A DNA stretch of 64,000 nt, taken from IMG/VR virus record IMGVR_UViG_3300005985_000001, positions 19,742 through 83,741 of that record. One strand, written 5' to 3'. The stretch is from a virus (lineage: Duplodnaviria; Caudoviricetes). The translations under genes and the position numbers were made by a program. Below, piece by piece: positions 10,355-64,000 of the stretch. Below the pieces are notes generated by a model. It was not told the origin of the DNA, ran no database searches, and saw only the letters and a program-made list of their open reading frames with translations. Position 1 is the first letter of the stretch; each line of letters begins with the position of its first letter.

Positions 10355-10357
10355 TAC

Positions 10358-12501: not shown

Positions 12502-12537
12502 TCAGATTCTCCTTCTCCGTTGTGGTGACGGATACAG

Positions 12538-12753: not shown

Positions 12754-12779
12754 TCCTGACCTTTCTTCAGAACGTTCCG

Positions 12780-13572: not shown

Positions 13573-13579
13573 GTTCGTT

Positions 13580-13783: not shown

Positions 13784-13815
13784 CAGGGTTTCTCCTTCTC
13801 TGGGCGTGGTGTGCC

Positions 13816-14193: not shown

Positions 14194-14236
14194 GAGGTTT
14201 CTCCTTCGTTTATGCTCGGTGGTGACGAGTTTTGAA

Positions 14237-14872: not shown

Positions 14873-14916
14873 TTGAAGCTTCTCCTTCTAACCTTGTGGT
14901 GTAGGTGTTTATACTG

Positions 14917-14929
14917 ATTATACTACGAA
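14917..14929 (-). promoter_or_regulatory. sigma70-like -10 element TTCGTAGTATAAT (copy 1)
   Basis: Identical 13-mer at 20549-20561; AT-rich intergenic gap. Confidence 0.7.
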
Positions 14930-14939
14930 AACGTACAAA

Positions 14940-15251
14940 TTAAAAGAGATGACTGGCAACCTCCAGACTAATAAACGCACGATTGCGTGTCGGCGAGAAA
15001 TGATAATCGATGCCCATAATGAAGGGATCCAGTCCATCACTGGGAATCCGTGCAGAGAGCAAGGCTTTATCCAATTCTTCTTCAATGTACTCGAAGTTCA
15101 TTTGTTCCGGTTCCAGATCCACCCACAGAAACATCCAGCGCCGGGCGTAAAAGCCTTTGCTGTCATAGTGCGGATTGCTGGATACAACCAGGTGAAACTT
15201 CGGGATGCGATTGCACAAGTCGGAACGTTCCGCTTCGGTGAGGTTAAGCAT
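14940..15251 (-). CDS. hypothetical protein
   Basis: 103-aa ORF, GGAG RBS. Confidence 0.7.
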   Translation of the reverse strand: MLNLTEAERSDLCNRIPKFHLVVSSNPHYDSKGFYARRWMFLWVDLEPEQMNFEYIEEELDKALLSARIPSDGLDPFIMGIDYHFSPTRNRAFISLEVASHLF

Positions 15252-15266
15252 GGATTACTCCTAAAG

Positions 15267-15620
15267 TCAGGATAAGCGGTTAATTCGCATTTCCAGATTG
15301 TGAATGTACTGTGCCAGTACAAGATTATCAGGGATACCCATCACGCGAGCCAGTATAGTGATTAAGGCGTACTGACCATTAGCGTCTATCAACAGCCTTT
15401 CTGGTGCGTGACTACTACGAGGTCGCTCTGATTCACCTAATTCACAAAGCCAATAACCACCCGCCGGATCAAGTTCGGTAATATGGAATAGCTGGTTTTG
15501 AACGTGTTTTGTGCTAAGATCGTCTGCAATCAGCACCCAATCTCCAACTTTAAACTTATGTGTTGTTTGCATCTTATGTTTACTCTCCGTCTTCCAGATA
15601 TGCTTTACGAAGAATTGCAA
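15267..15620 (-). CDS. hypothetical protein (SH3/KOW-like N-terminus)
   Basis: FKVGDWVLI; real start probably MQTTHK. Confidence 0.65.
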   Translation of the reverse strand: MQFFVKHIWKTESKHKMQTTHKFKVGDWVLIADDLSTKHVQNQLFHITELDPAGGYWLCELGESERPRSSHAPERLLIDANGQYALITILARVMGIPDNLVLAQYIHNLEMRINRLS

Positions 15621-15924
15621 TGATTTCTACGACAGAGAACTGGTCAAGTCCTTCTCTTGTGTCATAGTATGCTTCATACAAGTCGTCAAGGAACTCAGCC
15701 AGCATTTCCTGTTCTTCATCGCTGAACATGTTTACTCCGATGCGCTTGTGCCAGTCTTCAACCGCTTGCTCTAGTAGTCCCAAAGCAATGTGTTCTGGAA
15801 ATGCCACGTAGAGATCGTGGGTGGTAACAATCATCTTGGCGATGGGATCACCCGCTGCTTGTGCGGCCAGCAGTATCTCCTTGTTTGTCTTACACCACTC
15901 GAATACAGTTTCATTGGTGAGCAT
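15580..15924 (-). CDS. hypothetical protein
   Basis: 114-aa ORF, AAGGAG RBS. Confidence 0.7.
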   Translation of the reverse strand: MLTNETVFEWCKTNKEILLAAQAAGDPIAKMIVTTHDLYVAFPEHIALGLLEQAVEDWHKRIGVNMFSDEEQEMLAEFLDDLYEAYYDTREGLDQFSVVEIIAILRKAYLEDGE

Positions 15925-18296: not shown

Positions 18297-18449
18297 TCAT
18301 GAACCTCCTAAAAGTGCCTGCACCATGAGAATGACTAAGCCAATGAGCATAACGCCAAGCATGGACCAACGAATAGTGGCGGCGAAGAACCCTTCATACT
18401 CAATGTCTTCGAGATACTTGTCGACGATACGATTAATCAGGCGCTGCAT
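18297..18449 (-). CDS. 50-aa membrane protein (absent from track)
   Basis: MQRLINRIV...MLGVMLIGLVILMVQALL; GAAGGAGAA RBS. Confidence 0.6.
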   Translation of the reverse strand: MQRLINRIVDKYLEDIEYEGFFAATIRWSMLGVMLIGLVILMVQALLGGS

Positions 18450-18493
18450 CAGGTTTTTCTCCTTCATTGAATAGGCATGTGGTGGATGTCAGG

Positions 18494-18862
18494 TTAGGCT
18501 TCTTCGGTCAGTGTCACCTCGATAAATTCAAATGTATCGTCCGGGAATAAAGAGGTCTGAAGCCAGTGCTTGTGCGCTTCAACTTTCTCGCGGGAAATCC
18601 AGTGCAGGTCATAACGATCAGGATCAGGTGAAAAGTTCACATAGCCTTCATGTTCACCGTAGGTTGGATAGATCCAGAAGGCATACATGTCTGCATCTTC
18701 TCGAATCTCATACCGATGGAGTCGTTTACGCTGCACTGCATCAGGATACAACCGGCGTGATTTTAGCTCGATGAACAGTGCCTCAGACCAGTCATAATAT
18801 TGCTCTGTGAACCCTTCTTCATCGAGATATTCCCACTTTGAAATAAGCGTGGCATTATCCAT
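18494..18862 (-). CDS. hypothetical protein with QTSLF clamp-binding-like motif
   Basis: 122-aa ORF; QTSLF near the C-terminus. Confidence 0.7.
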   Translation of the reverse strand: MDNATLISKWEYLDEEGFTEQYYDWSEALFIELKSRRLYPDAVQRKRLHRYEIREDADMYAFWIYPTYGEHEGYVNFSPDPDRYDLHWISREKVEAHKHWLQTSLFPDDTFEFIEVTLTEEA

Positions 18863-18936
18863 CGCTTCAACAGTTGCTTCGATGCTTTTCTTCTGTGCTC
18901 ACCAATCTTCGAAGTTCATAGGTTTATTCTCCTTAT

Positions 18937-19926
18937 CTACTCGGAACGTTCCGGGCGTAGTTTGGTAAACACCAGTACCTGTTTATGTTCCAGGTAGCTG
19001 CTTTTCCACTCTTGGTCAGTCAAAATAGTTTCGACCAAGAGCCATTGGGCATGAGGGCAGAATCCGGCTTGATACAGCCCATTAGGACCATAGAACTCTG
19101 CGACTTGAGGCATGGGATAGTAGAAAATCTGATTGACCTGATCGTTGATTTCCATTGTTTCTTTTACCTTTCCCAGCGCCAGTAAATGACGTTTTTGCCT
19201 TGATGGTCTTCGTAGAAACCCATCTTGAACATAATCTTGCGCAGCCAGCGACGACGATTGGTTGAGATCACAAACATCTTAGGCATCGTACAATCGCGGT
19301 AGACAATCACGCGATTTTCGCCGAATGTCCCTTCGTAAATCATGATCACATCATGCATTCTACTACTCCTTGTTTATCCAGATCAAGACGAACGGGGGAT
19401 TAGTTCTCTGTGTTAAAGAACCTGCTCAAGCGTTGAACCAAGTCATACAAATGCTCATCCCGATACCGATACGGAATCTTCAAACTCTTGCCAAGTTCGT
19501 TTTCCGTGAAATGGCTGTTGCTGTGATGCCCCCAGCATCTCCCATCGGAATAGTAGTATCCGATCTCTACGCCATCCAGATAGATCGGATACCGTTTGTC
19601 CATGCCCACTGCTTTTGTGGGCGTGCCATGTGTGATTTCCATAGATTTATCCTCCAAATTAGAGAACGGATGATTAGTCTCTCTTCCTTCTCCCTCCCCG
19701 CCTACCGGTCCATCAACGCGGTTTCAATCTGGGCATAGGCACGAGAAGCAGCCTGATACAGCGGATGATCTTCCGGGTAAAGCGTCTGCACGTTACGCAG
19801 CACTTCAATGAAGGCATGGGTGGCGGAAATCACCACCTGGAGGGCATCCAGACGGGTACTGAGATCCATCTGTTCATCGTAGAGCAGGGCATACAGATTG
19901 AGGATATTCTCGGTGATGGTGAACAT
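18937..19926 (-). other. four consecutive small hypothetical CDSs (18937-19155, 19164-19358, 19400-19657, 19702-19926)
   Basis: Head-to-tail ORFs, most with purine-rich RBS. Confidence 0.65.
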
Positions 19927-32875: not shown

Positions 32876-33402
32876 TGGCGTACCAGGATGAGAGCGTCCT
32901 CAACATCCTCATCGATGCAATGGATGAGCGCCTGAATGAAGTGCTGGTGGGCGAATCCAACGATGAGACCAAAGCCGGTCTGGTGCGTCCGGGCAACCTT
33001 CAGGAAGACCCCACCGATGCTGGCATCAACATTCTGATCCACGAAGGCGGCGTGGACTGGCAGGATGAACTCTATGTCGAGCAACACGGCATCGATGCGC
33101 CCACCTACGAAATTGGCGGTGTTGAATACTGGTTCCGTCGCTTTGAGATTGAACTGGAACTCTTCTTTGATGGCGAAGACCAACGCGAACCTCCACGACG
33201 AAAAGCTTTGATCATTTACTCACGTGCCAAAAAAGCCCTCACCAGCATGGACATTCCTACTGAAAAAGACAGTTTTGGAGAGCAGGCGCACATGATTCAG
33301 GTACGCAAAGGCTACACCTCCGAAGGCGGCGGTGAAGGCACGTTCATCTGGAATTGCTACCTCTTTGTCGAATTTCTGACGAGTATCCGCGCCAATGCCT
33401 AA
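32875..33402 (+). CDS. head-tail joining / tail terminator-like protein
   Basis: Position, acidic beta-rich sequence. Confidence 0.55.
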   Translation: MAYQDESVLNILIDAMDERLNEVLVGESNDETKAGLVRPGNLQEDPTDAGINILIHEGGVDWQDELYVEQHGIDAPTYEIGGVEYWFRRFEIELELFFDGEDQREPPRRKALIIYSRAKKALTSMDIPTEKDSFGEQAHMIQVRKGYTSEGGGEGTFIWNCYLFVEFLTSIRANA

Positions 33403-34477
33403 TGTGATTGCGATCTTTCCCGGCAAGGAACGCACACCGGGAGGCTGTGAGATTTACCGCACCACCATGCCCTACTATCATCTTCAGAAGAAACACCCTG
33501 ACTGGAAAGCGGACTGGGTATTTGGTGAAACCCTCTGGACGGACATCATGACCCGAGGACCCATTGCCGCCAAGCAGTTTGCCGATCAGTATGACATCTT
33601 TGTGTTTCCCCGAAACTACGTCAAAGATGAAACAGGATTGGATAACTACCGTGAAATCACTGATCTTTTGCATCATCTGGGTAAGCGCCTGATCTACGAA
33701 GTGGATGATGATCTGACCAATCAGGAACGTCAGGTCATTAACGGTGATGCAGTGAGTGTTGCCAAGCTCTGCGATGCTATCACGGTTACGACCAAAGCCC
33801 TCGGCGACCTGATGAAAGCCAGAACCGGCAAGCCCGCCTACGTGCTGCCGAATATGTTTGCCCCAGAAACCTGGCTGGAGCCTTTTGCCGGAACGTTCCG
33901 TTATGCCGACAAGATCACGATTGGTTTGACCGGCTCTCCCACACACGAACGCGATTGGGAAGTGCTCAAAGATGTGCTGCCGAAAGTCGTTCAGGATAAT
34001 GGTGTGCATCTGGTGCTCATGGGCTATCACCCAGAGTATCTTCAGGATTTACCAAATACTTCCTATATTCCAGGTTTGCAGTATAATAGATATGCGCAAG
34101 TCATCCAGACTTGCGACATTATCCTCGCTCCACTCAATCACGAAGTTTTCAATCTTAGTAAATCCCCGATAAAAGTCCTTGAAGGACAAGCTGCCCGACG
34201 CTTCATTGACAAGCGTCCCGCAGGAGCCGCCTGTATTGCCACTGATCATCCGGTCTATCGACTTGCCATAAAGCCTGAAAAAACCGGATTGCTCGTTGAG
34301 CATACGCCGAGCGCCTGGCAGGAAGCTCTGGATCGCATGATCTATGATGAGCGCCTGCGGCATCAGCTTCAATTCAACGGTCATGAATGGGTGCAGAAGC
34401 ACCACGACATCTCCAAGACCGCAACCCTCTGGCGCAACGCCTACGAAAGCATTCTCCGCAAACCCATCCCCGCTTAA
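33395..34477 (+). CDS. GT-B (GT4-like) glycosyltransferase
   Basis: YEVDDD, IGLTGSPTH..DW, DIILAPL...FNLSKSPIKVLE, GLLV motifs. Confidence 0.85.
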   Translation: MPNVIAIFPGKERTPGGCEIYRTTMPYYHLQKKHPDWKADWVFGETLWTDIMTRGPIAAKQFADQYDIFVFPRNYVKDETGLDNYREITDLLHHLGKRLIYEVDDDLTNQERQVINGDAVSVAKLCDAITVTTKALGDLMKARTGKPAYVLPNMFAPETWLEPFAGTFRYADKITIGLTGSPTHERDWEVLKDVLPKVVQDNGVHLVLMGYHPEYLQDLPNTSYIPGLQYNRYAQVIQTCDIILAPLNHEVFNLSKSPIKVLEGQAARRFIDKRPAGAACIATDHPVYRLAIKPEKTGLLVEHTPSAWQEALDRMIYDERLRHQLQFNGHEWVQKHHDISKTATLWRNAYESILRKPIPA

Positions 34478-34498: not shown

Positions 34499-35605
34499 AT
34501 GTCTGTTTCTGCGCAGCTAGGCGACTTTGGATTCGCCATTCAGCCTTCTAAAGTCGGTCGAACTGGAACCTATACCGGTTCCGGTTACAAGTGGTATCGT
34601 ATGGACCCGCTCACGGTCCGTATGGATATTATTCAGGGCGACCAGGTGCTTCCACCCGAAGTTTCGCCGGACATTGTGCCGAAAGGCGCGTATAAGGACG
34701 GCTATTTCGGTGCAGGTCAGGCCGACCTGATCCCGCGTCTTCAGAACTCCTTCGGCGCACTGCTCTGGGGCTTGATGGGCAACGCCTCATCGGTCACAGG
34801 CAAGGACACCGATGGCGTGTCTGCGACGAACGTCAATACTCACATTTTCAGTTACAACCCAAGCGACAAGGCAGATCAGCCCTGGATGTCCTTCCGACGC
34901 CTGATCCCTGGCAAAGTAGCCGCAGATCGCTATGGGCAGACCTTCTTCGATGCCAAAGTTGCCAATGCGCGTATTACTATCCCGCAGAAGGGCAAGCTGA
35001 TGGCGCGAATCACGATGGTGGCCCGTGATGTGGATCAGGAAGAGAACCCCACCTGGGTCTGGGATGTGGACTATGAAGACACGACTTCTACGCCACAATC
35101 CGATCAGGGTTATCTGAAGATGCAGGGTACGGAATTTCCGATCACGGGTGCGGTTTTTGAACTGGACAATGGCTTGACTACGCCAGATCAGGAACGCATC
35201 ATTGGCGATCCCCGCCCTGATGACTTCACGGCACTCTATCGTCCGGCAACCCTGCGGTTTGTCTACAAGTGGGAAGACCCCAGCCTGTATCAGCAGGTAT
35301 TCAATGGCGGCGACGGTCTGACCGACTGGGATCCGCTGCCGAAGATCTTCTCGACGGTTGGCGCGAACTTCGCCTTCGATGCCATGTTCGAGACGCCGTT
35401 GACTATTAGTGGTTCTTCGCCTGCACGAAAGTATGCGGTACGTATTCGTGGCAACAGTGCCACGCTTGCTCCAGATGGCCCAATTGAACTTGCAAGCGCA
35501 ACCCTGCTCCAGCAGGCATTCACGCTGACTATCCTCAAAGCAACCGGCAATGCGCCGTATCTCCAGATTCTGCTCCAGAACGGTGTCACTGGTTATTCTG
35601 CCTAA
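34499..35605 (+). CDS. major tail (tube) protein
   Basis: 368 aa, position before the chaperones, tail-tube-like composition. Confidence 0.8.
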   Translation: MSVSAQLGDFGFAIQPSKVGRTGTYTGSGYKWYRMDPLTVRMDIIQGDQVLPPEVSPDIVPKGAYKDGYFGAGQADLIPRLQNSFGALLWGLMGNASSVTGKDTDGVSATNVNTHIFSYNPSDKADQPWMSFRRLIPGKVAADRYGQTFFDAKVANARITIPQKGKLMARITMVARDVDQEENPTWVWDVDYEDTTSTPQSDQGYLKMQGTEFPITGAVFELDNGLTTPDQERIIGDPRPDDFTALYRPATLRFVYKWEDPSLYQQVFNGGDGLTDWDPLPKIFSTVGANFAFDAMFETPLTISGSSPARKYAVRIRGNSATLAPDGPIELASATLLQQAFTLTILKATGNAPYLQILLQNGVTGYSA

Positions 35606-36047: not shown

Positions 36048-36370
36048 ACCGCCACTTGAAGGCAGTAGGTGATGCTGTCTTCGAGTGGCTGAGTTATCAC
36101 GAGCCGACTGCTCACGACCCACACGGGATCGGAGCAAAACCTGAAGGACCCGAGCCGGAGCGACCAGAAGCCTATGACATTCTTCTGCAACTCCGGCGTT
36201 TTCACTTAACCTGGGCGCAGGGCGGCTACGAAGACCAGCCCTGGCTGCTCACTGAAGAACTCAATGCTGCGTCTGACGCGGAGACCCGGCACAAAAACTT
36301 AATTTTATTGAATCAGAAGCGCCGAGAAGAGTGGGCGGCTTCTCAGAAAGCAAAAGGTCTGCTGACATGA
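36038..36370 (+). CDS. tail assembly chaperone GT extension via -1 frameshift at GGGGGAA (36038-36044)
   Basis: The -1 frame is open to TGA 36368-36370; GGGGGAA is the slippery site described for mycobacteriophage L5-type G/GT genes. Confidence 0.75.
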   Translation, partial: GGIDRHLKAVGDAVFEWLSYHEPTAHDPHGIGAKPEGPEPERPEAYDILLQLRRFHLTWAQGGYEDQPWLLTEELNAASDAETRHKNLILLNQKRREEWAASQKAKGLLT

Positions 36371-39300
36371 GACTTCGGCGCAACATGGCGTTCAATGCCA
36401 ACCTCGATGTAGACAATCAGGATCACTACCGGCACTTGATGAATCGCCTGGATCGTGAAGGCATCAAGTACGGGATGAATGATGTCGATCTGGGCTTTGG
36501 GCGGAACCTCACGGCGATCACCATCAACCAGCGCATCCGCGATAAGGACGTGCAAAGCCACCTCTTCTATGGTCCCGAAGGTGGCTTATATGTCTCTAAC
36601 CCGAACAACACGGGTGGCGTGCGTCCGATCCTGTCCACCATTCGGTTCAATAAAGATGAATCTATCTCGCCTTCCAATCCTCTGATGTCGCCGGTGGATC
36701 GTGTGATTAACATGATCCAGAATCCAAATTGGGAAGACCCAAAGACCAAGCGAGTTTCGCAGTATGGCTTGTCTACGCTGGCACAGAAACAGGGAGCAGA
36801 TAACGTCTCCTGGCAGCGTCTCGAAGCCCAACCCGGTCTGGATCGCCTGTTTCGCAACGGCGTTCAACTGAGCGGTGAAAAGTATAGTTATAACGATAAG
36901 ATTGACCAGCTTAATCGCGCAACCGGAAGTGATTATGTCAACTACGCGAGAGTAGGCGCAGCATATCGGGCGAAAGATTACGAGGCGGTGATTCCCACCA
37001 ACAATGCTGGTGGAATGCTCATTTCAAAACTGAAGGAAGCAAAACTTTTCACCGGTAAAGTTTCGGATGCCGTCATTGGCAGAAACATCTACGAGCCATC
37101 CCCGGAGCCTTTCTACTTTGAAGGTCAGGCAGGTCCGAATCAGTCGGTCGTGCTTCGTGGCGCATTTGATCTTTTCTCGGAAATCCCTGAAGGCGCAGCA
37201 TTTACGGCTGGTTTAGGGGCTGCCAATCGCATCAGTCGTACAGTAACACTCCCAAGAGGGACGACCTATGATCCCGATACAGGTGGGTTGACGCTGGCAA
37301 ATGGCACCGCCTTAAGTGCGGGAACCTATTTTGGCGGGAAGCCGCCCGGCAGTTATAGTGACTATACCCGCCTGGGTGGAAAACGTGAATATAACGACAT
37401 CTTTGGCGTTTCAATGGGAAGTTATCACTCGACGCTGATCGAGAATATTGTTCCCGAACTCAATGATCGTGGGCAGTTCACGGGTCGAGCAACCTTTGAT
37501 GCGCGTGCCATTACCAAAGACGTAGCCATAAAATCATGGATAAAAGCCGAAGGGATGGACATTCACCGTTCGGCAATGCCTTTTGACGAGGAAACAGATC
37601 GGCATGTCGATACCTGGATGCGCTTGCCCGATCTCAAGAAACTGCCTGCACTGGCTTTAAAAGCCCTTGCCGCAGATATGAATAATACAGAAGCTTTTGG
37701 GCAATGGTTCGGTGAACAGGCGTCTGCGCGTGGGATGTCAGCGGACTGGATTGCTCAGAATTTCCAGAATGGGCAGGTCAGTAAAGAAGCCACGCCACTG
37801 GTAACAGAGGCAGCCATTCAGCGTTTATTAAGCAAGGCAACGTACAATCCACAAAATCCGCGTCGGAATGTTCCATTAGGATCAACTGAATACGAAGCCT
37901 TTCGTAATGTGACCTTTATCCATCAGGGACAGTCCTACAATGTACTTGGAAATGTACAAGCCCGCGATGATGGAACCTATCTTGCGGAGACTTTCCATAC
38001 ACCCCGGATTGTCACCGACTACGCGACTAATGTGCGTACTGAACATGTGCGCGATACGATGCGAATTAAGCCGGGAACGCTGTCCATCATGGCACAGAAT
38101 AACCCGGAACTCTTTGATTCGCTGACATCCATTGCTCAGGCAACCCGGAAGAACAACCGCGCTTTTGCCATGACCTCGGCATTTCGCGCCAATAGTTCAT
38201 CCGAACAACGTCAGGCAGTGCAGGATATATTTGGTATCGACAAACTGGATATTGCTCAGGTCGGACGTTTACGAGAAGAATATCTGTCGAATAACACGGA
38301 TGTCAGTGATAGTGGCATGTTCCGTCACATTCTCAGTGGATTGGCTGAGCAGTATGGCGAGCAAGCACTGGAACTGAAGACTCCACAGGGGTCGATGATC
38401 CTACCCAATGCCCGAACGATTCGGGCAGGATTGCGACGAAACAATGATAACCCGGAATTAATCAACAACTGGTCAAAAAGTGCAGCGGGTCTGATTACTG
38501 CACTAGGGGATGATTCTATTTCTCCCGATATTATTCAGAACATGGCCAATGACACTTATGCCAGAATGGAAGAACATTCTGGCAAGCGGGGTGTTCAGCA
38601 AAAAGCCACGAGTATTGAACTCGGGCGGTTAGGCGGTTTTGCGCGTTCAACGCCTGGTATTCCCGATAACATGGCAATTACCTCATTGGCAACCATTCAA
38701 AAACGGACGGGTATCGAGAATCCTGATGAGATACGCCGGATGGCAGCGCAAGGTGACCTTGTGCTCTCTGGCTGGCGCTATCCCTCTACGCACGCGAAAG
38801 ACTTTGCTGCATCGGTTCGACTGGGCATTTATGAAGATCAACCGCAGTGGTACAAAGATCGCTATCTAAATCCAGGAAGGGATGTTTACACCTCTCCTGA
38901 AATCATGCGGGCGTTGCGCGGAGACAATGATGGCGACCGCTTTCAAGCTGTCCTAAATCGTTTTCGAACGCAAGCAGCCGAATTCGGGAAATCCCTTACT
39001 GCACTCACGCCAAGACAGGTCGTTCAACGTGCAGCCAATGCGTTTGAGAGCGAACGCACCAAGTTCATCAAAACGATGGCGGAACGTTCCGGGATGGATC
39101 TGGCGAACACACCTTTGTCTGCGTTCTCATCTTTCTCCTATTCCCAGAAACAAATGCGCGAAGATTTTCTCACAGAGGAGCGAGAAGCCAAGAGTCTGAT
39201 TGGCATCAACACCAACACCTTTAACCGCAGTATGGGGATGGCAGCGCGTTCTGGTGCAGAGCAGCTTTTTGGAGTCGATAGTCCGCTGACGGACCGGATT

Positions 39301-42300
39301 GCAGTGGCGTTTTCGAGCATTGAGAATATCACCGGCGCATCAGCACTCGACCGCGCTGCTAACAAGGACACTGCTCTGGAATACTTGCAGCAGGTGGGAC
39401 AGGACAAGGGGCTGTATCGCACAGGTGCACGATTCTGGAACCGCTCAACCGGCAAAACTCTGACCGGACCAGAATCTCAATTCCAGGAAATTTTTAAACA
39501 ACTTTCTAGTATTGGTTCTAACCTGGAAGGTGAGCCGGTGCTGGGTATTAGCCCAGATCAGGAATACCGGCAAAAACTAGCGCCTGCGATTGCGACGGCA
39601 ATGCTCACGCGCGACGAGATGAAACGCCTGGCGGATTCTGGCGAACTGGATCAGCGCATCAACCAGATGGCAGATATGCTTACTCAGCGCCGTGCCACTG
39701 GAGAAGACATCAGCACCCAGCTTTTGCCACTGACCGGCGCTGCAAAATTTGCGGAGTGGGGTGAAGGCAACGGTTCTGGATTGGGTTCACAGTCCAGTAT
39801 TGGACAGTGGATTACTGGACAGATTGCCAATAACTATCGCTTGTCACAACGCAAAGATAAAAGTGGCAATAAGATGGTTGACGCCAACGGGAAACCCGTC
39901 ATTATGGGTGAGTTCCCGACCGACTGGGGCGCACAGTATGAGAATGCAGGCAAGATTGCCCAGAGCATACAAGAATTTAATACCAATCTCGGCAAGCGGC
40001 GAGGGAATAATACACTGGAACAGGCGGTTCGCTCAGTAGCCGGTGGCGGCGAACGTCTGAAAAACTTCCTCGGTGGTATGTTCCCTGGACTGGCGCAGGC
40101 TACACAGCGATTCGCTGTTGCACCGGTTGATGATCCAAGTTTGTACAATCCAGGCGCTTACCTGACCGCCTCACAGTGGACCAGTGGCACCGGAGTAGAC
40201 GATGAACTGCTGCGTCTGGTGAATTTGAACACCACCTCAGCGGAACGTTCCGGCGTAATTGCCGAACTGATGAAGTCCGGTGCATTCCAGGAGTATCGTC
40301 CCTACAGCGGTCCTGCCAATAACGCGGATAAAGTCGGGACGCGCATGGAGAATGTGCTGACCGGCAAACTGGCAGCCCCTGAGAACCAACAGATTCTTAT
40401 GGCGAATGCTCGGCGTCGTATGGGCAACTCTCGGGCGGACTTCGGGATGCGCGACAGTGCAGGCAACCTGGTAGTCGGTGACATCAAGACCAAGAGCCGC
40501 ACGGGGCTGATGAGTGACCTTCTGGGTCCGTCTCTGCGTGGCGACATCATGGGTCAGGTCTCCAACTACATCACCGGTACTCGTATCGACGGCGGCGAAC
40601 GTCAGACCGGCGATTACGGCGTGGTCGTAGGCGGGATTCGTCTTAGCGACAACCCGAACATGCCGGAATCTGAAGTCGCGGCTGGGTTCGAGCAGGCGCA
40701 CGATCTGGCGATGCAGATGTACAGTAACAGCCAGATGCCGACTTCATGGGCAAATGCAGGCTGGACGCAGGAACGATGGGAGTCTCATCGTCAAGCCTCG
40801 ATGCAGGCCATGCAGGACATTTACGCCGCTTCGGGGATGAAAGTGGCTGCGCGGGTTGTGACCGGTGAAGAAGCAGAACAGTTCCTCAATGCCCGTCAGG
40901 GCGACATCTACAATCTGAAGTCGATTCGTCCTGAGCATCGTGCTGCGGACATGGCGGGTCGTGCGCAGCAAATCATGGCGCTGCGTGGTGGCGGCAATAT
41001 CAGTGGTTCTGGAGTAGGCTCTCCGCCCCCTCCAAACATGCCTGGCGCACCTCCGGCTCCACCTTCGGGCGACGATGGCTATGTTCCGTCCAGTGCCAGT
41101 GGAAGCGGCGGCTCGGGTGGCGGCGGCTCAGTGGTCAACAATAACACTGTCTACCGGATGTCCAACCCACGCATCACATCCAAGCAGATTGCCGAAGCAG
41201 AGATCGCACTGGAACATCTTGGCGAAGCCGCGAAGACCTTTGCAACCGGATCTAAAGAAGCCCGCGAAGAGATGCTCAAGCACTACGATGCTTTGAAGAC
41301 TGTCTCTTCATACCTGAGTGACGTGGAGCGGGCACAGCGTTCGCCGGACGGCTTCAATACCAACAATCCTAACTATCTTCTGCTTCAGCAGCGATTGGGC
41401 AGCGGGCGTGCAGGTGGCTCGGCGTTTGGCACCATCAACAATGCCGTTTATGATCCTGCATTGAGCAATGCGGCTTATGAAGCCCAGCTTGCCAATATGC
41501 GAGACACCGGCGAAGAGCCGCCGCAATCTCGGCTCCAGCGCATGATGCGCGGCGGGCAGGATCTCGCTGAACGTATCATCAAAACGCAGGGCTTGTTCCA
41601 TGCAAAGCTGGCGTTCAATATGTTTGCAGGCTCGGCGATTGGCGCAGCCGATAACTGGCAGGATCAGCAAGCTGCACAGGGAATGATGCTGGCACAAGCC
41701 GGTCAGTTGACGTTCAATCAACTGATGGGCAGTCAATTCGGAACCATGCAGCGTCGTAACATCGCCCTTCAGGAAGGCGGGCTTGCCTATGGGCAACAGG
41801 TCTACAGCGCCTATGCGCCGTTGATCAACTTCGCAGCCGGTCCCGACACTGCGAAAGGTCCGCTGGGCGCAATGGCAGGGATTGGCGTGCCTGCGTTTGG
41901 CGTTGCGGCGGCTGCGACGACACTTACTGGCAGTCCTCTCTTTGGTGCTGTAGCGGGTGGTGTCACAGCCGGTATCGGCACGCTTGGCTATATGTCATCG
42001 AATGCCGTAAACTATCAGGCAGTCGGCGCATTTAATCAGCAGCGCAATGCCGGGATGGGCTTACAGGCAATGTTCCAGAATACAGCCGGAGCAGCCGGGG
42101 CTTTCTGGAATGATCTGGGGCGCGGGTTGGGTCTTGTTTCCGACGAAGACTACCAGCGGTATCTGGATGCGCCTCAGTTCAACGACCTGATTCAACGTTA
42201 TTCACGCGGCGAAGTTGGGCGTCAGGAAGCAATTGCTCAAGCCGAAGCCATGCGTTTCAATGGTGGCGACCTGATGGCAGGTGGCTTGGAGGCCTGGGTG

Positions 42301-44634
42301 CAGTCCCAGACTCGCGCAGGTGCATCTCGTGAAACGGCATTGAGCAACTACAGCTACTGGGCACGTTATAATCCGAATTATATGCCAGGCGGCGACCTTG
42401 CCGGTCAGATGACCCGCATTGCAATGGGCGGCGGGGATACAGGAACGGTTGCCCAGTCCTTCGCTGGATCGCGCGGTATCAGCCCGTTTAGTCAGTCTAT
42501 GATGGATAGCGTAAATCGCTATGCCATGAACATGCTCACTGATCAACAGAATATGGGCTTGTTCACGGAAGCATCCAGCTTTGTGGGACAGCAGATTGGT
42601 GGTGTCAATCAGGCACTGCGTATGGCAGGACTGGGTAGCAGCCAGGCTGATCTCCTTCAGATGGTGCAATTCCTGCAAAATGGTGGGTCACTTGACCAGT
42701 TCAATGCAGGACTTCAGAGCCGAGGTACTGCTGCCTCGCTTCGCATGAGTACACCGGGTTTCTTCGATGTGGGTGGCTATCGACTGAAAGATAACTGGGA
42801 AGTATTCTCTGGTCAGGGTGATTTTGTCACGACTGAACGCTTGCAGCAGCAGGCAATGCAAGCCGGGCAGATGTATAACCAGTTCCTCGCCAATGGCGCT
42901 TCGCCGGGAGATGCCTTTGCCAATGCTTACCGCTACGGCACGGACTACGATGAAGCCAGCGCGAACCGTCAATTCCAAATGCTTCAGGGCAATCAGCGAG
43001 TCATTTCACTTGAAGGTGTCCGAACCCAGAATGCTGCATTGCAAACGATCAATCCGAACACGGGGATGGGCGCATACTACAACAACGTCAATGCCGAGAA
43101 TATCGCGGCGCTGAGAGCCAACAATCCCTTTGGCTTGTTCAACCTCACCGACGAAGAAGCACGCATGGGCGAGATGGGCTGGCAGAACCAGATCCTGCGC
43201 GCCAATCGCGGGCTGGAAGCTTACCAGTATGGGATGCGAGTGCGTCAGCGTGATCTGGGCTATGCGCTCACCACTGGCAATATGTTCCAGGCAGGGGGTC
43301 TGTTCGGTGCAGACGGAATGGCATTCAACCCCGGCGATGGCAGAGGCTTCTGGCAATTGGAAGATGCATCTCGTCGTCTGAATCGTGCGCAGCAGTCCTT
43401 CTCGTATGAGCAGGATACGGCACAACTGGGGATTCGTCAGCGTGAATTCGAGCTTTCTGGTTTGCAGTGGCAGACCAATTACGAATTGCAGCAGCGCCAG
43501 TTTGCATACAATACGCAGTATCAACGCGAAACACTGGGCATCTCGCGTGGACGCGAACTGGAACAGCAAAGCTGGCGACGAGAGGATCTTGCTTTTTCCA
43601 GATCACAACTCGATATTGGCTTTGCGTGGAATATGGAAGATGCAGATCGCAATATCCGCTATGCGCGTGGGCGTGAGAAGCGCGATCTGATGCGTCAGAA
43701 AGCCCGCGAAGTCATTCGCTACTCGATGGAATCGTCTCAACTGGATCGTCAGACCGAGCGCAATGAACAGCAAGTCGGCTGGTCGCAGCAGGACTTCGAG
43801 CGCCAGAAGCAGTATTTCGAACAGGGCGTTCAGTTCCAGAAAGAGGCGATGGAGAACCAGAAGAAGTTCTACGACCAGAACCGTGAACTGGATCGCCAGC
43901 GTCTTGACCTGGCAAAGCAGGCGCATGACCGTCAACTGGGCTGGATGCAGGAAGGCTGGCAGATCGAAGATCAGCGTATCCTGCTCGAACGCCAGAACTA
44001 CCAGTTGTCCTACAAGCAGCAGGTCGATATGGATACCCGGATTCGTGAGAACACGCTCACGGTGCAGCGATGGAGCGATGCGATTGATCAGGCAGGACGT
44101 GTCATGCAGGAACGGATTGCAGCGATCAATACTGCGGTGAGTACCGGGAACATCACTAGCCCACAAGCGCAACGGAACCTGAACAATTATTCCTATACAG
44201 GCTTGTCGCAGGATTCGGGTAGTGGCAGCAGTTCGAGCGGCACGGGATTGCCCGTGAATCCAGTCCTGAACCGCACCTATACAGCGAACGATGGTCGTCG
44301 CTTCACTTATACGGCACGCGGCTGGCTGCCAGCAGGCAGTGACTCTAGCACATCGCGCTACGGTCAGTCGGGTGGATTTGCTCAAGGTGGTTATACGGGT
44401 ACAGGCGATCCCAATGAAGTTGCAGGGGTGGTTCACAAGGAAGAGTACGTGGTGCCGCAGGGTGGCGCACTGGTGGTTCGTGGAGCCAGTGAAGAGCAGC
44501 TTAAGCGTCAGGATCGGATGATCGCGCTTCTGGAGAAGATCGCCGATAACCCGACGCTGTTCCAGGTCGTGATGGGAGATGGCAATAAGAGCAAAGCCAC
44601 TCCGATGTATCGTGAAGCGGCAGCACGGCTCTAG
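36367..44634 (+). CDS. giant tape measure protein fused to a two-barrel RNA polymerase core and a PD-(D/E)xK nuclease-like domain
   Basis: TMP position after G/GT; C-terminal FAQGGYTG...VAGVVHKEEYVV lambda-type TMP motif; N-terminal GKRG, RYP and DNDGD motifs; ADF...DIK...QVSNY. Confidence 0.85.
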   Translation: MRLRRNMAFNANLDVDNQDHYRHLMNRLDREGIKYGMNDVDLGFGRNLTAITINQRIRDKDVQSHLFYGPEGGLYVSNPNNTGGVRPILSTIRFNKDESISPSNPLMSPVDRVINMIQNPNWEDPKTKRVSQYGLSTLAQKQGADNVSWQRLEAQPGLDRLFRNGVQLSGEKYSYNDKIDQLNRATGSDYVNYARVGAAYRAKDYEAVIPTNNAGGMLISKLKEAKLFTGKVSDAVIGRNIYEPSPEPFYFEGQAGPNQSVVLRGAFDLFSEIPEGAAFTAGLGAANRISRTVTLPRGTTYDPDTGGLTLANGTALSAGTYFGGKPPGSYSDYTRLGGKREYNDIFGVSMGSYHSTLIENIVPELNDRGQFTGRATFDARAITKDVAIKSWIKAEGMDIHRSAMPFDEETDRHVDTWMRLPDLKKLPALALKALAADMNNTEAFGQWFGEQASARGMSADWIAQNFQNGQVSKEATPLVTEAAIQRLLSKATYNPQNPRRNVPLGSTEYEAFRNVTFIHQGQSYNVLGNVQARDDGTYLAETFHTPRIVTDYATNVRTEHVRDTMRIKPGTLSIMAQNNPELFDSLTSIAQATRKNNRAFAMTSAFRANSSSEQRQAVQDIFGIDKLDIAQVGRLREEYLSNNTDVSDSGMFRHILSGLAEQYGEQALELKTPQGSMILPNARTIRAGLRRNNDNPELINNWSKSAAGLITALGDDSISPDIIQNMANDTYARMEEHSGKRGVQQKATSIELGRLGGFARSTPGIPDNMAITSLATIQKRTGIENPDEIRRMAAQGDLVLSGWRYPSTHAKDFAASVRLGIYEDQPQWYKDRYLNPGRDVYTSPEIMRALRGDNDGDRFQAVLNRFRTQAAEFGKSLTALTPRQVVQRAANAFESERTKFIKTMAERSGMDLANTPLSAFSSFSYSQKQMREDFLTEEREAKSLIGINTNTFNRSMGMAARSGAEQLFGVDSPLTDRIAVAFSSIENITGASALDRAANKDTALEYLQQVGQDKGLYRTGARFWNRSTGKTLTGPESQFQEIFKQLSSIGSNLEGEPVLGISPDQEYRQKLAPAIATAMLTRDEMKRLADSGELDQRINQMADMLTQRRATGEDISTQLLPLTGAAKFAEWGEGNGSGLGSQSSIGQWITGQIANNYRLSQRKDKSGNKMVDANGKPVIMGEFPTDWGAQYENAGKIAQSIQEFNTNLGKRRGNNTLEQAVRSVAGGGERLKNFLGGMFPGLAQATQRFAVAPVDDPSLYNPGAYLTASQWTSGTGVDDELLRLVNLNTTSAERSGVIAELMKSGAFQEYRPYSGPANNADKVGTRMENVLTGKLAAPENQQILMANARRRMGNSRADFGMRDSAGNLVVGDIKTKSRTGLMSDLLGPSLRGDIMGQVSNYITGTRIDGGERQTGDYGVVVGGIRLSDNPNMPESEVAAGFEQAHDLAMQMYSNSQMPTSWANAGWTQERWESHRQASMQAMQDIYAASGMKVAARVVTGEEAEQFLNARQGDIYNLKSIRPEHRAADMAGRAQQIMALRGGGNISGSGVGSPPPPNMPGAPPAPPSGDDGYVPSSASGSGGSGGGGSVVNNNTVYRMSNPRITSKQIAEAEIALEHLGEAAKTFATGSKEAREEMLKHYDALKTVSSYLSDVERAQRSPDGFNTNNPNYLLLQQRLGSGRAGGSAFGTINNAVYDPALSNAAYEAQLANMRDTGEEPPQSRLQRMMRGGQDLAERIIKTQGLFHAKLAFNMFAGSAIGAADNWQDQQAAQGMMLAQAGQLTFNQLMGSQFGTMQRRNIALQEGGLAYGQQVYSAYAPLINFAAGPDTAKGPLGAMAGIGVPAFGVAAAATTLTGSPLFGAVAGGVTAGIGTLGYMSSNAVNYQAVGAFNQQRNAGMGLQAMFQNTAGAAGAFWNDLGRGLGLVSDEDYQRYLDAPQFNDLIQRYSRGEVGRQEAIAQAEAMRFNGGDLMAGGLEAWVQSQTRAGASRETALSNYSYWARYNPNYMPGGDLAGQMTRIAMGGGDTGTVAQSFAGSRGISPFSQSMMDSVNRYAMNMLTDQQNMGLFTEASSFVGQQIGGVNQALRMAGLGSSQADLLQMVQFLQNGGSLDQFNAGLQSRGTAASLRMSTPGFFDVGGYRLKDNWEVFSGQGDFVTTERLQQQAMQAGQMYNQFLANGASPGDAFANAYRYGTDYDEASANRQFQMLQGNQRVISLEGVRTQNAALQTINPNTGMGAYYNNVNAENIAALRANNPFGLFNLTDEEARMGEMGWQNQILRANRGLEAYQYGMRVRQRDLGYALTTGNMFQAGGLFGADGMAFNPGDGRGFWQLEDASRRLNRAQQSFSYEQDTAQLGIRQREFELSGLQWQTNYELQQRQFAYNTQYQRETLGISRGRELEQQSWRREDLAFSRSQLDIGFAWNMEDADRNIRYARGREKRDLMRQKAREVIRYSMESSQLDRQTERNEQQVGWSQQDFERQKQYFEQGVQFQKEAMENQKKFYDQNRELDRQRLDLAKQAHDRQLGWMQEGWQIEDQRILLERQNYQLSYKQQVDMDTRIRENTLTVQRWSDAIDQAGRVMQERIAAINTAVSTGNITSPQAQRNLNNYSYTGLSQDSGSGSSSSGTGLPVNPVLNRTYTANDGRRFTYTARGWLPAGSDSSTSRYGQSGGFAQGGYTGTGDPNEVAGVVHKEEYVVPQGGALVVRGASEEQLKRQDRMIALLEKIADNPTLFQVVMGDGNKSKATPMYREAAARL

Positions 44635-57497: not shown

Positions 57498-59786
57498 ATG
57501 GGTCTGATTAATCCCCATTTTGAAGCCTTCAAACCTGACTACAACGAAGATCAGGTCGTAGAGATTGCTCTACGGATGCGGGCATCGTTCGCAGTCATCA
57601 TGAATGATGCGAAGGCAGCCAAGAAGCTCCAAGATGCAGGCATCATCCCGATCTTCCGCGTGTTGAATGCCTGGTTCAATGACGATTCGGGGCATGACCA
57701 CTTTGATGCAAAGGTGTATCTGGAGTTCATGGTCGCAGCAGCGCGAGCAGCAGGCTGTGATGTCACCCGAATGATCTTCTACTACATCAACGAAGCAGGC
57801 AATGCCTCGATGCCCAAGCTCAAGGAGCAGCTTCGCCTCGCCATTGAAGCCGCGAAGCAACTGGGCATCAAGCTCTGCGTCCTCAATATTGCCATTTGGA
57901 ATTGGACGCTTGAAGACTGGGAATACATCGAAGACGAACTCGATGAAGTGGCCTATGTCGGCTTCCATGAGGGCTACTACAACGGACAGGAAACCTTAGA
58001 CCTGGCAGAAGCAGCCGGTTCGATTGGTCGCTTCGAGTATGTTCTGAAACGCTTTCATCTTCAGGGTCGCGTGATCATCACCGAGTTCGCCGGATCACTC
58101 ACGGCGCATGACGGCTGGCGGGCACTCTACAAAGGCAACTGGCAGTTGTGGGCGCAGCGCATCCGCGAAGCCATGATCGCCTTCTACGCCCGCTACAACA
58201 TCCCGATCTGTCTTTTCACCGCATATTCGTGGCGGCGCGACTTTGACTATTACCGAGAGATTGAGTTTCAGCAGAAGATTGCCGAACTCAATCTCCAGTT
58301 TATTTATCTTGAGGAACCTTTGATGGTCAACATGCGAGATCTGGTGTGTCCGAGTAATGGCCCGCTTCGTAAGCTGAACTCCGGCGAGATCGTACAAACG
58401 GTCTGGAATGGGAGTTTTGGCTACCAATACAAGAACAGCCAGTGGGAACAGTTCTGCATCAAGACGATGGCTGGTGTTGATTGGGTTTGCCGTCTGATGG
58501 ACATTAGTGAGTATCTGGCACCTCGTCAGTCGGTTTATGCCTTGTTTGAGGATAAATCGCTTACCAAGCCCGGTGGTGCATGGGTACCGGTCAATGCCGA
58601 AGTCGGCAAGGTCTACACCCGTGATGTGTGGGTGCAGGAATACTGGCGGGATGGCAGATTGATCCCAGAAGGCACGCTGGGCAGCAAAACCGGACGAGAT
58701 GTGACCTACTTCAAAGTGGTCAAGGTGCATCCCACTTGGGCAACTTTTGAAGGGGTTCAGGTACAGAACGTTGCCGAGTGCGTGTATGGACATGATTACA
58801 CTGCGGTCGTGGCTGCCAATGCGGAACGTTCCGCTGGCGTAAAAGAGCGTTATTTTTACTCTGGCGGCTTAGTCGGTTTCATCGACTACAACTTTACACC
58901 TCCGAGTCAAACGGTGCTCACGCCCTCACGGGATTGGCCCAATTCTCGTCCTGCTCCAATTCAACTCCCCTGGTGGAATCCTCAAATGACAACCCCAACC
59001 ATCCCTGCTGGTCAAACACCATATACTGCCAAAGCAATCGATGCTGTGAAACTCCGCCCTGCGCCTGGGTTAGGCACTAGCAATTTGTTCAACCCAGCCA
59101 TTGTGATCCCTAAAGGCAGTACAGTTACTCTATTTGAGACTCCAGCCATTACGGATACACCGGATGAATGGACGTGGGTACGCTGCGAGAGTGTGCTTGG
59201 CAACGGCTTCGCGGCTCGTGAATTCTTCGAGCGCGTACAATCGGTGCCAGTGATGGACTTTGAGATTGCTGTCCCTTATTTTTCGCAGATCGATGCCAAG
59301 CTTGCAATCAATGACTGTTTTCCTGCCTGCGGCACTTCACTGATTCACTACGAATACCCGCGACATGGGATTGCTCGCCCTTCACTCATTAGCGTAGATG
59401 ACCTTACACGAGATAGCGATCTTATGAGGGTAGATGATGGTTTAGGCTGTTCTGAAGGCGTTACCCTTCTCAAGGGATACGGACTTAACACTATTTGGTA
59501 TAAGGCACTAACTGTAGATGATTTACCTCAGTTTATTGAAGATGGAAAGCCGCCAATATTACTGGTGAACTCCAAATATATTGGCTATACCGCAGAATTC
59601 GGACACTTCATCCTGGCGCTTGGATATAAGAAAGATGCTGGCGGCAAGGTGACACATATTAAATATCACGATCCTTATTCTCTAGGGGCAAATCAAATCC
59701 AGACTGCTACTAATATGAAAAATGCCATGAATGACGTTGGTAAGTTTACTCCGCATGGGCCTGGGCAAGCGGTTATCCTGACATGA
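57498..59786 (+). CDS. modular endolysin: GH-A-like TIM barrel, unknown domain, SH3b, C39-like peptidase
   Basis: INEA/FHEGY/IITEFAG; VKLRPAPG..TW; VPYFSQ..NDC..C..GHFIL..YHDP. Confidence 0.75.
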   Translation: MGLINPHFEAFKPDYNEDQVVEIALRMRASFAVIMNDAKAAKKLQDAGIIPIFRVLNAWFNDDSGHDHFDAKVYLEFMVAAARAAGCDVTRMIFYYINEAGNASMPKLKEQLRLAIEAAKQLGIKLCVLNIAIWNWTLEDWEYIEDELDEVAYVGFHEGYYNGQETLDLAEAAGSIGRFEYVLKRFHLQGRVIITEFAGSLTAHDGWRALYKGNWQLWAQRIREAMIAFYARYNIPICLFTAYSWRRDFDYYREIEFQQKIAELNLQFIYLEEPLMVNMRDLVCPSNGPLRKLNSGEIVQTVWNGSFGYQYKNSQWEQFCIKTMAGVDWVCRLMDISEYLAPRQSVYALFEDKSLTKPGGAWVPVNAEVGKVYTRDVWVQEYWRDGRLIPEGTLGSKTGRDVTYFKVVKVHPTWATFEGVQVQNVAECVYGHDYTAVVAANAERSAGVKERYFYSGGLVGFIDYNFTPPSQTVLTPSRDWPNSRPAPIQLPWWNPQMTTPTIPAGQTPYTAKAIDAVKLRPAPGLGTSNLFNPAIVIPKGSTVTLFETPAITDTPDEWTWVRCESVLGNGFAAREFFERVQSVPVMDFEIAVPYFSQIDAKLAINDCFPACGTSLIHYEYPRHGIARPSLISVDDLTRDSDLMRVDDGLGCSEGVTLLKGYGLNTIWYKALTVDDLPQFIEDGKPPILLVNSKYIGYTAEFGHFILALGYKKDAGGKVTHIKYHDPYSLGANQIQTATNMKNAMNDVGKFTPHGPGQAVILT

Positions 59787-61363: not shown

Positions 61364-62056
61364 ATGATACTGACCAGGCGTAAGCTGCATCCGATGACCG
61401 AAGTGATTGCAGTCATGACCTACAACCAGCCGGAGATGGTGTGGGCACTCATGCAGGAACTCAGTCCTTATCTCCTGGTGATTGATAATGGTTCGACTGT
61501 ACCCATCCCCAACACACGTATTCGAGTTCCAGAGAACCGCTATTTTGCAGGGGGCTGGAATTACGCCATGCAGCAGATTGACGCCGACTGGGTCGCCATG
61601 CTGAACGACGACATCACCGGTATCACGGTCGGGATGATCAGCGACTTGATTGATACTGCGATAGCACATGACTATGCTGCGATCTCGCCCGCCTTTAACT
61701 CTCCGCATCCGCATATGCAGCCGCAAGGCAAAGGACTCAGACGTGTTCACTCGATTGATTGGGTAGCGACTATTGTTCGCAAAAAAGCCTGGGATGATGT
61801 GGGTGGCTTCAATGAAGCCTTTCCTGGCTATGGATCGGATCTTGAGTGGGCATATCGTGCCAAGCAAAAAGGCTATCGCCTGGCTGTCGATGATCGCTAC
61901 TGTATTCACCACATCGGCGGCGCAGCAGCAATTGCTGGTGGTACGCAGCACATTCAGGGCAATGTCACATCGATGAACGAAGCGTTCAATCGGCTCTATT
62001 CTGTCCCGGACTGGATGGCATTTACCCAGCAGTATCTAATGAAGGATTTCTCATGA
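61364..62056 (+). CDS. GT2 glycosyltransferase
   Basis: LLVIDNGS, FAGGWN, MLNDD, VGGFNEAFPGYGSD..W..RA. Confidence 0.88.
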   Translation: MILTRRKLHPMTEVIAVMTYNQPEMVWALMQELSPYLLVIDNGSTVPIPNTRIRVPENRYFAGGWNYAMQQIDADWVAMLNDDITGITVGMISDLIDTAIAHDYAAISPAFNSPHPHMQPQGKGLRRVHSIDWVATIVRKKAWDDVGGFNEAFPGYGSDLEWAYRAKQKGYRLAVDDRYCIHHIGGAAAIAGGTQHIQGNVTSMNEAFNRLYSVPDWMAFTQQYLMKDFS

Positions 62057-63626: not shown

Positions 63627-64000
63627 ACTCCTCGACGGATCATCGGCCACCACAACCTCCCCGTCAAGGATGAAGGAGAATACCCCAATGCCCTTGAGGG
63701 GGTGTGAGAGGTAAACTCATGTATCAGTTTATCGAACAACGTAACTAAAGTCAATCATGAAAAACGTATACCGCGTAAATAATTCTTAAGAATCACAAAG
63801 TTATAACACTTAAGCGGTCAAGGCATTGAGTAAGAAATAAGGATTAAACGGATAAATACGACTTTTGTAATCCGTTCGTGAACTGCTTTCAGAATCCATA
63901 TTGATGAGCGCAGTCATTCTACGGCATACTTTATAAACCGAAGATTTCGAGTGCGATGGAAAAGCCCGATACACATCGGCAGTTGTTTTTCCTGTGCTGA

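Follow-up and report, generated by a model that had tools for sequence, protein, structure and literature searches.

Phage tape measures are already known as carriers of enzymatic cargo, and the cargo published so far consists of wall-degrading domains, to which an RNA polymerase in phage P23-45 was added in 2024. In this Thermus phage, as well as in P74-26, G20c and TSP4, the protein gp96 is a giant tape measure with an N-terminal two-barrel polymerase that bears a DxDGD loop (PMC10770324); the authors of that work proposed that this polymerase remains at the pore formed by the tape measure, where it would transcribe the DNA on entry (PMC10770324). A nuclease cargo has been described on Tme, a tape-measure-like protein of the contractile injection system of Streptomyces davawensis (PMC11126660). 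Here we describe a domain within a giant protein (P0001) in the tape-measure position of the genome of an uncultured phage, which is supported, by structural modelling and motifs, as a very divergent predicted nuclease of the RecB/Cas4/lambda-exonuclease type, RecB-like in fold and in motifs. The protein is encoded in a stretch of 64,000 nucleotides (the window) that corresponds to bases 19742-83741 of the 83,741-bp IMG/VR virus record IMGVR_UViG_3300005985_000001, which is rated complete by CheckV. Full-text searches of the literature returned no paper that describes a phage tape measure with a PD-(D/E)xK or RecB-like domain, the nearest precedents being the polymerase fusion of P23-45 (PMC10770324) and Tme (PMC11126660).

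Coordinates are window positions unless marked as genome positions, and residue numbers are counted from the GTG at position 36331. The gene is a single open frame of 2767 codons in which the predicted nuclease domain lies 3' of a polymerase-like region and is followed by a linker and then by the tape-measure core:

36331-44634, plus strand: giant tape-measure-position protein P0001, 2767 residues, a single open reading frame (ORF) 3' of the tail tube gene and of a chaperone-like ORF pair.
36508-39930, plus strand: N-terminal two-barrel RNA-polymerase-like region, about residues 60-1200 (GDNDGD motif, homolog alignment).
40132-40965, plus strand: predicted cysteine-free RecB-family PD-(D/E)xK nuclease domain, residues 1268-1545 (AlphaFold model, VIA-align, Foldseek, language-model neighbours, conservation).
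40981-41160, plus strand: Gly/Pro/Ser-rich flexible linker, residues 1551-1610, from the nuclease domain to the tape-measure core (composition scan, translation).
41161-44634, plus strand: tape-measure core (hydropathy scan, homolog alignment).

A predicted RecB-family nuclease domain

The strings and residue numbers that the original prediction had named in the middle of this protein are exact when counted from its GTG. The same prediction had placed a nuclease domain at 40130-40620; the domain is present there, but its end is not at residue 1430, as conservation and the model extend it to about residue 1545 (position 40965). Its motifs, with their counterparts in RecB and in lambda Exo, are the following:

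40162-40173, plus strand: LTAS, residues 1278-1281, the N-terminal h-T/S-x-S motif; L1278 and S1281 are invariant and model confidence is low here; T-S-Y-S 904-907 in RecB, ITAS 32-35 in lambda Exo.
40348-40350, plus strand: E1340 in GTRME, the motif I glutamate, on the first core helix (model helix 92-108); invariant; E1020 in RecB, E85 in lambda Exo.
40438-40440, plus strand: D1370, the aspartate of motif II, where core strand beta-2 begins, directly before model strand 132-135; invariant; D1067 in RecB, D119 in lambda Exo.
40480-40488, plus strand: D1384-I-K1386, motif III or (D/E)xK, on core strand beta-3 (model strand 141-149); D-I-K-T-K is invariant; D1080-x-K1082 in RecB, E129-x-K131 in lambda Exo.
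40555-40569, plus strand: Q1409-V-S-N-Y1413, the QhxxY motif, on the helix after beta-3 (model helix 165-175); Q and Y are invariant; Q1110...Y1114 in RecB.

Motifs II and III are separated by 14 residues in the domain, 13 in RecB and 10 in lambda Exo, and the distance from motif III to the glutamine is 25 residues, as compared with 30 in RecB. The listed residues of RecB and lambda Exo are catalytic, and by analogy with these two enzymes and with Cas4 the following roles can be proposed: E1340, D1370 and D1384 would hold a divalent metal, K1386 would activate water, and Q1409 and Y1413 would contact the substrate.

Among 5.8 billion clustered proteins and 1.84 billion representatives, the only carriers of the domain besides P0001 are P0003 (2894 residues, 53% identity in the domain) and P0004 (2791 residues, 33%), and conservation was read from a three-way alignment of these, the only proteins with this region. 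E1340, A1369-D1370, D1384-I-K-T-K1388, Q1409, Y1413, L1278 and S1281 are invariant, as compared with about 20% of all columns in this region; by a rough estimate, the six motif residues would all be invariant by chance with a probability of roughly 0.2^6. The motif alone means little, since the loose pattern D-x(8-20)-[DE]xK-x(15-35)-QxxxY is found in 20% of shuffles of P0001; it is the conservation that carries weight, and the supposed catalytic residues, whose loss in homologs would have spoken against a nuclease, do not vary in either of the two homologs with the domain, at 53% and 33% identity. An opposite-strand ORF at 40237-40701 was considered as a real gene and rejected, because the plus-frame protein is conserved in the homologs.

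The fold was modelled with AlphaFold2 on residues 1240-1555, using the three-sequence alignment and five models (run 1). The one usable model (m1d8f27baed7c) has a mean predicted local distance difference test score (pLDDT) of 62, with values of 74-94 over most of model residues 131-270 (residues 1370-1509 of the protein). It consists of a helix (92-108), three strands (116-117, 132-135 and 141-149), a helix (165-175), a strand (190-197), more helices and a fifth strand, and at this overall confidence it presents the topology of the PD-(D/E)xK core. The acidic residue D1370 stands at the start of beta-2, the conserved D1384-I-K1386 lies on beta-3, and Q1409-V-S-N-Y1413 is on the helix that follows motif III, so that each RecB-family motif occupies the structural element expected for it (PMC4176176). 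The QhxxY motif was defined, and shown to be essential, in Cas4 (PMC4176176).

A VIA-align search of 48,161 representative PDB chains gave a list in which nearly all of the best 26 rows considered are PD-(D/E)xK nucleases. Its matches include the DinG N-terminal domain (Z 7.3), MGME1 (PDB 5zyt; Z 7.0, 3.5 Å, 131 residues), Cas4 in Cas4-Cas1-Cas2 (Z 7.0), LHK-Exo (3syy; Z 6.6), SSO0001 (Z 6.2 in this PDB-wide list), RecE (3h4r; Z 5.8), Hjc (Z 5.6), lambda Exo (3slp; Z 5.5) and Dna2 (Z 5.4), and further AddAB, Exo5, AdnAB, McrC and CdiA-CT (the last with Z 4.3 and 3.7). When the Foldseek candidates were re-aligned, the Cas4 protein SSO0001 (4ic1) came first, with Z 7.9 and a root-mean-square deviation of 4.3 Å over 121 residues at 16% identity. 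The best Foldseek rows from PDB and BFVD are Cas4, MGME1, restriction enzymes, proteins named 'PD-(D/E)XK nuclease superfamily' and YqaJ proteins, at E-values that are not significant (best 0.3 in PDB and 0.017 in BFVD). The restriction-endonuclease-like fold that had been foreseen from the motifs is borne out in the better AlphaFold model, which has the PD-(D/E)xK core and whose matches are led by RecB-family members. The language-model features point in the same direction: for the core, the named ESM-Atlas clusters that lie closest are Tox-REase-9 (three clusters, 0.88-0.89), Tox-REase-7, VRR_NUC, AHJR-like, herpes UL24 and influenza PA (Flu_PA, 0.81), all of which we take to be PD-(D/E)xK families.

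A considerable number of results speak against this assignment and have to be set beside it. HMMER searches with single sequences and profiles found no match to the domain in Pfam, PHROGs, NCBIfam, PADLOC or the PDB sequences. A six-frame search of the genome at E <= 10 gave no match to PF12705 (PDDEXK_1) or PF15650 (Tox-REase-9), and none to PF01930 (Cas_Cas4) in the domain; PF12705 was likewise not detected by hmmscan of the three proteins, therefore the domain is not a member of that Pfam family as currently modelled. An hhalign comparison with a shallow RecB profile was not significant (P 0.63), although it sets AD1370 against ID1067 and D1384-I-K against D1080-Y-K of RecB, and the comparison with lambda Exo gave no meaningful alignment; the RecB homologs and lambda Exo loci gathered for this purpose were near-identical to the seeds and added no profile depth. 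The language-model scores are all below 0.9, the threshold for more than a lead, and the structural Z scores are all below 8, 'middling' by the calibration of the tool. In four of the five run-1 models the pLDDT does not exceed about 50. A second run, with the trimmed residues 1268-1535, reached 51.8, kept the D/DxK hairpin and lost the QxxxY helix, and its matches were helical fragments only, with no nuclease among them. In all, one of ten AlphaFold models is reasonably confident, and the alignment behind them holds three sequences.

From these results it could be argued that the motif arose by chance in a domain that is conserved but folds differently, and that one good AlphaFold model has been over-interpreted. 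The frequency of the loose motif among shuffles, the lack of a profile match to any family, the pLDDT of about 52 or lower in four of the five first-round models and in all of the second round, with helical fragments as the only matches of the second model, and language-model scores that amount to leads would all be expected in that case. Nevertheless, the strand hairpin with the D and the DxK is present in both models, and all six motif residues are invariant with a spacing that matches RecB and lambda Exo. The PD-(D/E)xK reading is favoured because two independent methods, namely AlphaFold with structural search and the model-free language-model features, agree on the superfamily; a different fold is accordingly judged quite improbable, and we consider it very likely that the predicted fold of the domain is PD-(D/E)xK.

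There is no cysteine in residues 1267-1545, thus the four cysteines of the Cas4 iron-sulphur (Fe-S) cluster are absent and the domain is not an Fe-S 'iron staple' Cas4; in this it resembles the cluster-free MGME1, lambda Exo, RecE and RecB. The earlier label 'RecB/Cas4-like' holds for the fold and the motifs but not for the Fe-S cluster, for which the cysteines are lacking. If the prediction is correct, the domain stands for a new lineage of RecB-type nucleases, very divergent and free of cysteine, which would be added to a known nuclease superfamily.

The fusion protein and its relatives

P0001 was placed in the tape-measure position of a siphovirus-type module because of the order of the head and tail genes that flank it. 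Upstream on the same strand are the genes for the large terminase, an SPP1-type portal, the major head protein, a glycosyltransferase and the tail tube; two short overlapping ORFs in the usual chaperone position lie between the tail tube gene and P0001, and large tail and baseplate-type proteins are encoded 3' of it. A hydropathy scan detects a hydrophobic membrane-type segment in the tape-measure core, at about residues 1843-1866 (41857-41928), and the C-terminal 1150 residues combine this segment with long helical regions; the tail tube gene, the chaperone-like ORFs, the membrane-type segment and the long C-terminal core are all as expected for a tape measure. The C-terminal region of the core is conserved; the core can be aligned to P0003, P0004 and P0125 over their C-terminal halves and to P0127 in part, and phrog_19210 matches weakly at the C-terminus of P0001. 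It was also observed that P0001 has no cysteine across all its 2767 residues, which would fit a protein that passes unfolded through tail and envelope.

The N-terminal region of about 1200 residues is like a two-barrel RNA polymerase of the P23-45 gp96 kind, and is regarded here as a putative one. A GDNDGD motif read in the sequence, a putative metal-binding loop, is found at residues 864-869 (38920-38937), with D865, D867 and D869 invariant in P0001, P0003 and P0004, and the region aligns lengthwise with P0003, P0004, P0125 and P0126.

A phmmer search of the 1.84 billion representatives returned P0001, P0003 and P0004 only, therefore no stand-alone or differently fused version of the nuclease domain is detectable by sequence. 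Similarly, tblastn of 50,697 phage records gave nothing for the domain, and no relatives turned up when IMG/VR and JGI metagenome contigs were scanned with its alignment. A profile of the full-length proteins adds three more, i.e., P0125, P0126 and P0127, so that this rare lineage counts five proteins related to P0001 among the billions searched. P0125 (2621 residues) aligns with residues 62-1265 (polymerase) and 1608-2767 (core) of P0001, and the gap between the two is occupied by a Gly/Pro/Ser-rich linker of 125 residues only. P0126 (1805 residues) has the polymerase, a linker and then tape-measure helices, and is probably cut by a contig end; P0127 shares the tape-measure part only. In the N-terminal residues 3-36 of P0125, ahead of the polymerase region, there is an E3_binding (peripheral subunit-binding) domain (PF02817, E 5e-8), from which it follows that these fusion proteins have a second position for variable cargo at their N-terminus.

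The co-occurrence of nuclease and polymerase, a check proposed with the original prediction, is found in P0001, P0003 and P0004, but the nuclease is lacking in P0125 and P0126, so the pairing is not obligatory. In an unrooted maximum-likelihood tree of the polymerase region of the five proteins, P0004 and P0126 are separated from P0001, P0003 and P0125 with a support of 100/100, and the identity between P0001 and P0004 is alike in the domain (33%) and in the polymerase (31%). The simplest history that these sequences suggest is that the nuclease domain would be ancestral and was lost at least twice. Given its absence from P0125 and P0126, the domain is an accessory module that can be dispensed with, and its gain and loss among relatives show that the slot from polymerase to ruler is a variable cargo position. 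The possibility that the domain is a part of the polymerase fold was rejected, as it is absent from two relatives that bear the polymerase.

Possible functions of the domain

Since the active-site residues of the tape-measure domain are intact, the phage probably delivers the putative nuclease together with its DNA. The best reading of the data is that an active nuclease is ejected with the tape measure and, at the channel of entry, probably acts on the ends of DNA. The typical substrates of RecB-family enzymes are DNA ends or single-stranded DNA (ssDNA). In phage 80alpha, three tape-measure chains have their N-termini at the neck beside the DNA and their C-termini at the tail tip, and the tape measure is thought to exit before the DNA (PMC11661146). 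Because in siphoviruses the N-terminus of the tape measure is located at the neck, close to the end of the DNA, and the tape measure is ejected first, a few copies of the nuclease may reach the cell in tethered form, on the cytoplasmic side of the DNA channel, where the first DNA that they meet would be the leading end of the phage's own genome. One strand of this incoming end could then be resected or nicked, and the exposed ssDNA would serve as template for the adjacent polymerase, whose relatives prefer ssDNA, or, alternatively or additionally, for end annealing or end protection. We assign a probability of roughly 0.45 to this action in cis on the incoming genome end.

The order of the domains, i.e., polymerase, nuclease, a flexible linker of about 60 residues and a membrane-inserting core, counts in favour of the action in cis. 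With respect to the template, it has been reported that the crAss-like virion polymerase gp66 transcribes ssDNA or denatured DNA and not double-stranded DNA, and that QDE-1-type enzymes transcribe ssDNA far more robustly than RNA (bioRxiv 10.1101/2020.03.07.982082). Other observations argue in the opposite direction. Neither the hidden Markov model of the domain nor its motif has a match in P0125 or P0126; since these two proteins and P23-45 gp96 are without the nuclease, the polymerase does not strictly need it. In addition, an exact direct terminal repeat of 123 bp (genome 1-123 and 83619-83741, the second copy at window 63878-64000) has no obvious terminal feature, and its length and this lack of any feature suggest that an overlap made by the assembler, from a circular or permuted genome, may be present here in place of a physical end; nothing was drawn from the orientation of the genes at the ends.

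A more extended version of the action in cis holds that polymerase, nuclease and core form a conserved, injected 'transcription starter kit', in which the nuclease would resect the first DNA to enter and a clamp-less polymerase would obtain an ssDNA template before any phage gene is expressed; as a whole we consider this unlikely. If a nuclease in the tape measure is confirmed, it would be the second enzyme acting on nucleic acids that enters together with the genome, at a site and time at which the phage DNA is most exposed and transcription must start without help from the host, and it would suggest a route by which ssDNA-preferring virion polymerases obtain their template.

The main alternative is that an active PD-(D/E)xK nuclease is injected as an effector against nucleic acids of the host or of a competitor, for host shut-off, nucleotide scavenging, or the destruction of a defence element or of rival DNA, in the manner of the restriction-fold toxin domains known from polymorphic toxins. 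Tox-REase-9 (0.88-0.89) and Tox-REase-7 are indeed the named language-model clusters closest to the domain, but there is no Pfam match to Tox-REase-9; likewise, CdiA-CT toxins appear among the structural matches (Z 4.3 and 3.7), but the best of these matches are end-processing exonucleases and not toxins, and the QhxxY motif marks the RecB family. The loss of the domain at least twice, with polymerase and tape measure kept, is what would be seen for an accessory of an arms race, and an effector related to a tape measure, with a C-terminal endonuclease of another fold, has been published for a contractile injection system (PMC11126660). However, the few tape-measure copies per virion, tethered by a linker to a membrane core, would have a limited reach to the host chromosome, and neither an immunity gene nor a self-sparing DNA-modification pathway was identified in the genome. 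An effector is judged less probable than the action in cis.

Another alternative derives from the position of the domain, which is fused directly after the RNA-polymerase-like region. In this case it would be a PD-(D/E)xK ribonuclease coupled to the polymerase, which cuts host or nascent RNA for transcript processing, primers or mRNA shut-off, as in influenza PA and the L proteins of bunyaviruses and arenaviruses. Polymerase-fused cap-snatching domains do belong to the PD-(D/E)xK superfamily, in which inactive derivatives such as RecC are also found (PMC3424549). The Flu_PA neighbour (0.81), the bunyavirus cap-snatching endonuclease (Z 4.0) and the influenza polymerase (Z 3.8) agree with a ribonuclease, but these matches to RNA viruses are far down the lists, and the top matches together with QhxxY point to DNA exonucleases. 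To our knowledge there is also no evidence that phage virion polymerases initiate from primers, and a ribonuclease appears to us very improbable. Just as little can be expected of a fold that works without cleavage, as a structural module or one that binds DNA ends, and that would keep hold of the genome end, protect it or assist in packaging the N-terminal cargo: RecC and the nucleocapsid protein of TTV1, which is reportedly derived from Cas4, would be its parallels, but inactivated homologs usually lose catalytic residues, whereas E, D, D-x-K, Q and Y are all invariant here at 33-53% identity, with about 20% of the columns invariant.

Genome setting and comparison with known systems

The leftward arm of the genome encodes a DnaB-like helicase, a primase, a replication initiator, a sliding clamp, a UvsX/RecA-like recombinase and a Sak4-like protein; among the larger ORFs scanned, neither a DNA polymerase nor a further, non-virion RNA polymerase was recognised. 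The following genes are relevant here:

Genome 18438-19340, minus strand: stand-alone Cas4-type protein of 300 residues (L085), just left of the window (phrog_1706, E 3e-5; no Pfam match).
Genome 10150-15626, minus strand: DnaB-like helicase, primase and initiator.
3473-4573, minus strand: sliding clamp (phrog_947, E 5e-61).
34499-35605, plus strand: tail tube protein (PF18906).

The Cas4-type protein has D119, E132-V-K134 and Q154-LLA-Y158, and its cysteines 46, 255, 274 and 278 have the canonical arrangement of Cas4. Its gene adjoins that of the Sak4-like protein (genome 16890-17996) and the UvsX-like recombinase is not far (genome 6753-7925), so that the three look like an ordinary recombination module of a phage. 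From the presence of this separate Cas4-like gene beside Sak4-like and UvsX-like genes it follows that the tape-measure domain is not the general recombination nuclease of the phage. That the domain could be a paralog of the Cas4-like gene was also considered and rejected, given that the two show no similarity.

Other genes of the window were noted in passing. Two are glycosyltransferase-like: one at 33395-34477, a GT-B enzyme (Pfam Glyco_trans_1_4) in the head-tail operon between the neck genes and the tail tube gene, and the other at 61364-62056, near the right end. Also near the right end, an ORF of 762 residues (57498-59786, plus strand) has no PHROG match and sub-threshold Pfam hints only, to an AP_endonuc_2-like TIM barrel (residues 38-149) and a papain-like Peptidase_C70 (residues 592-728).

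The closest known enzymes are the cluster-free members of the RecB family, namely MGME1, lambda Exo, LHK-Exo, RecE and the C-terminal domain of RecB, which have the same order of motifs with a similar spacing and no cysteine cluster; the structural likeness to MGME1, lambda Exo, LHK-Exo and RecE extends over 131-167 aligned residues with Z 5.5-7.0. In contrast with this likeness, there is no detectable sequence homology, and the domain is internal to a virion-type protein of 2767 residues, whereas these enzymes are free-standing or attached to a helicase. Among the Cas4 proteins (SSO0001, 4ic1; Pcal_0546, 4r5q; PF01930), SSO0001 is the best single structural match of the domain; nevertheless, Cas4 has four conserved cysteines, one N-terminal and three C-terminal, that hold an Fe-S cluster, and the domain has none. 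The polymorphic toxins Tox-REase-9 (PF15650), Tox-REase-7 (PF15649) and CdiA-CT are also PD-(D/E)xK domains delivered into another cell on a large carrier; however, theirs are C-terminal and paired with immunity proteins, while QhxxY and the best structural matches of the domain point to the RecB family.

As regards the carrier, P23-45 gp96 has the same combination of polymerase and tape measure, but a counterpart of the nuclease is absent from it, as judged by the motif and by the hidden Markov model, there is no detectable sequence similarity in this region, and no nuclease is mentioned in the gp96 paper (PMC10770324). Tme shares with P0001 a nuclease cargo on a tape-measure-like protein; in contrast with P0001, it belongs to a bacterial system without a polymerase, and its nuclease is C-terminal, of the EndA / DRGH, H-N-N type, and has a different fold (PMC11126660).

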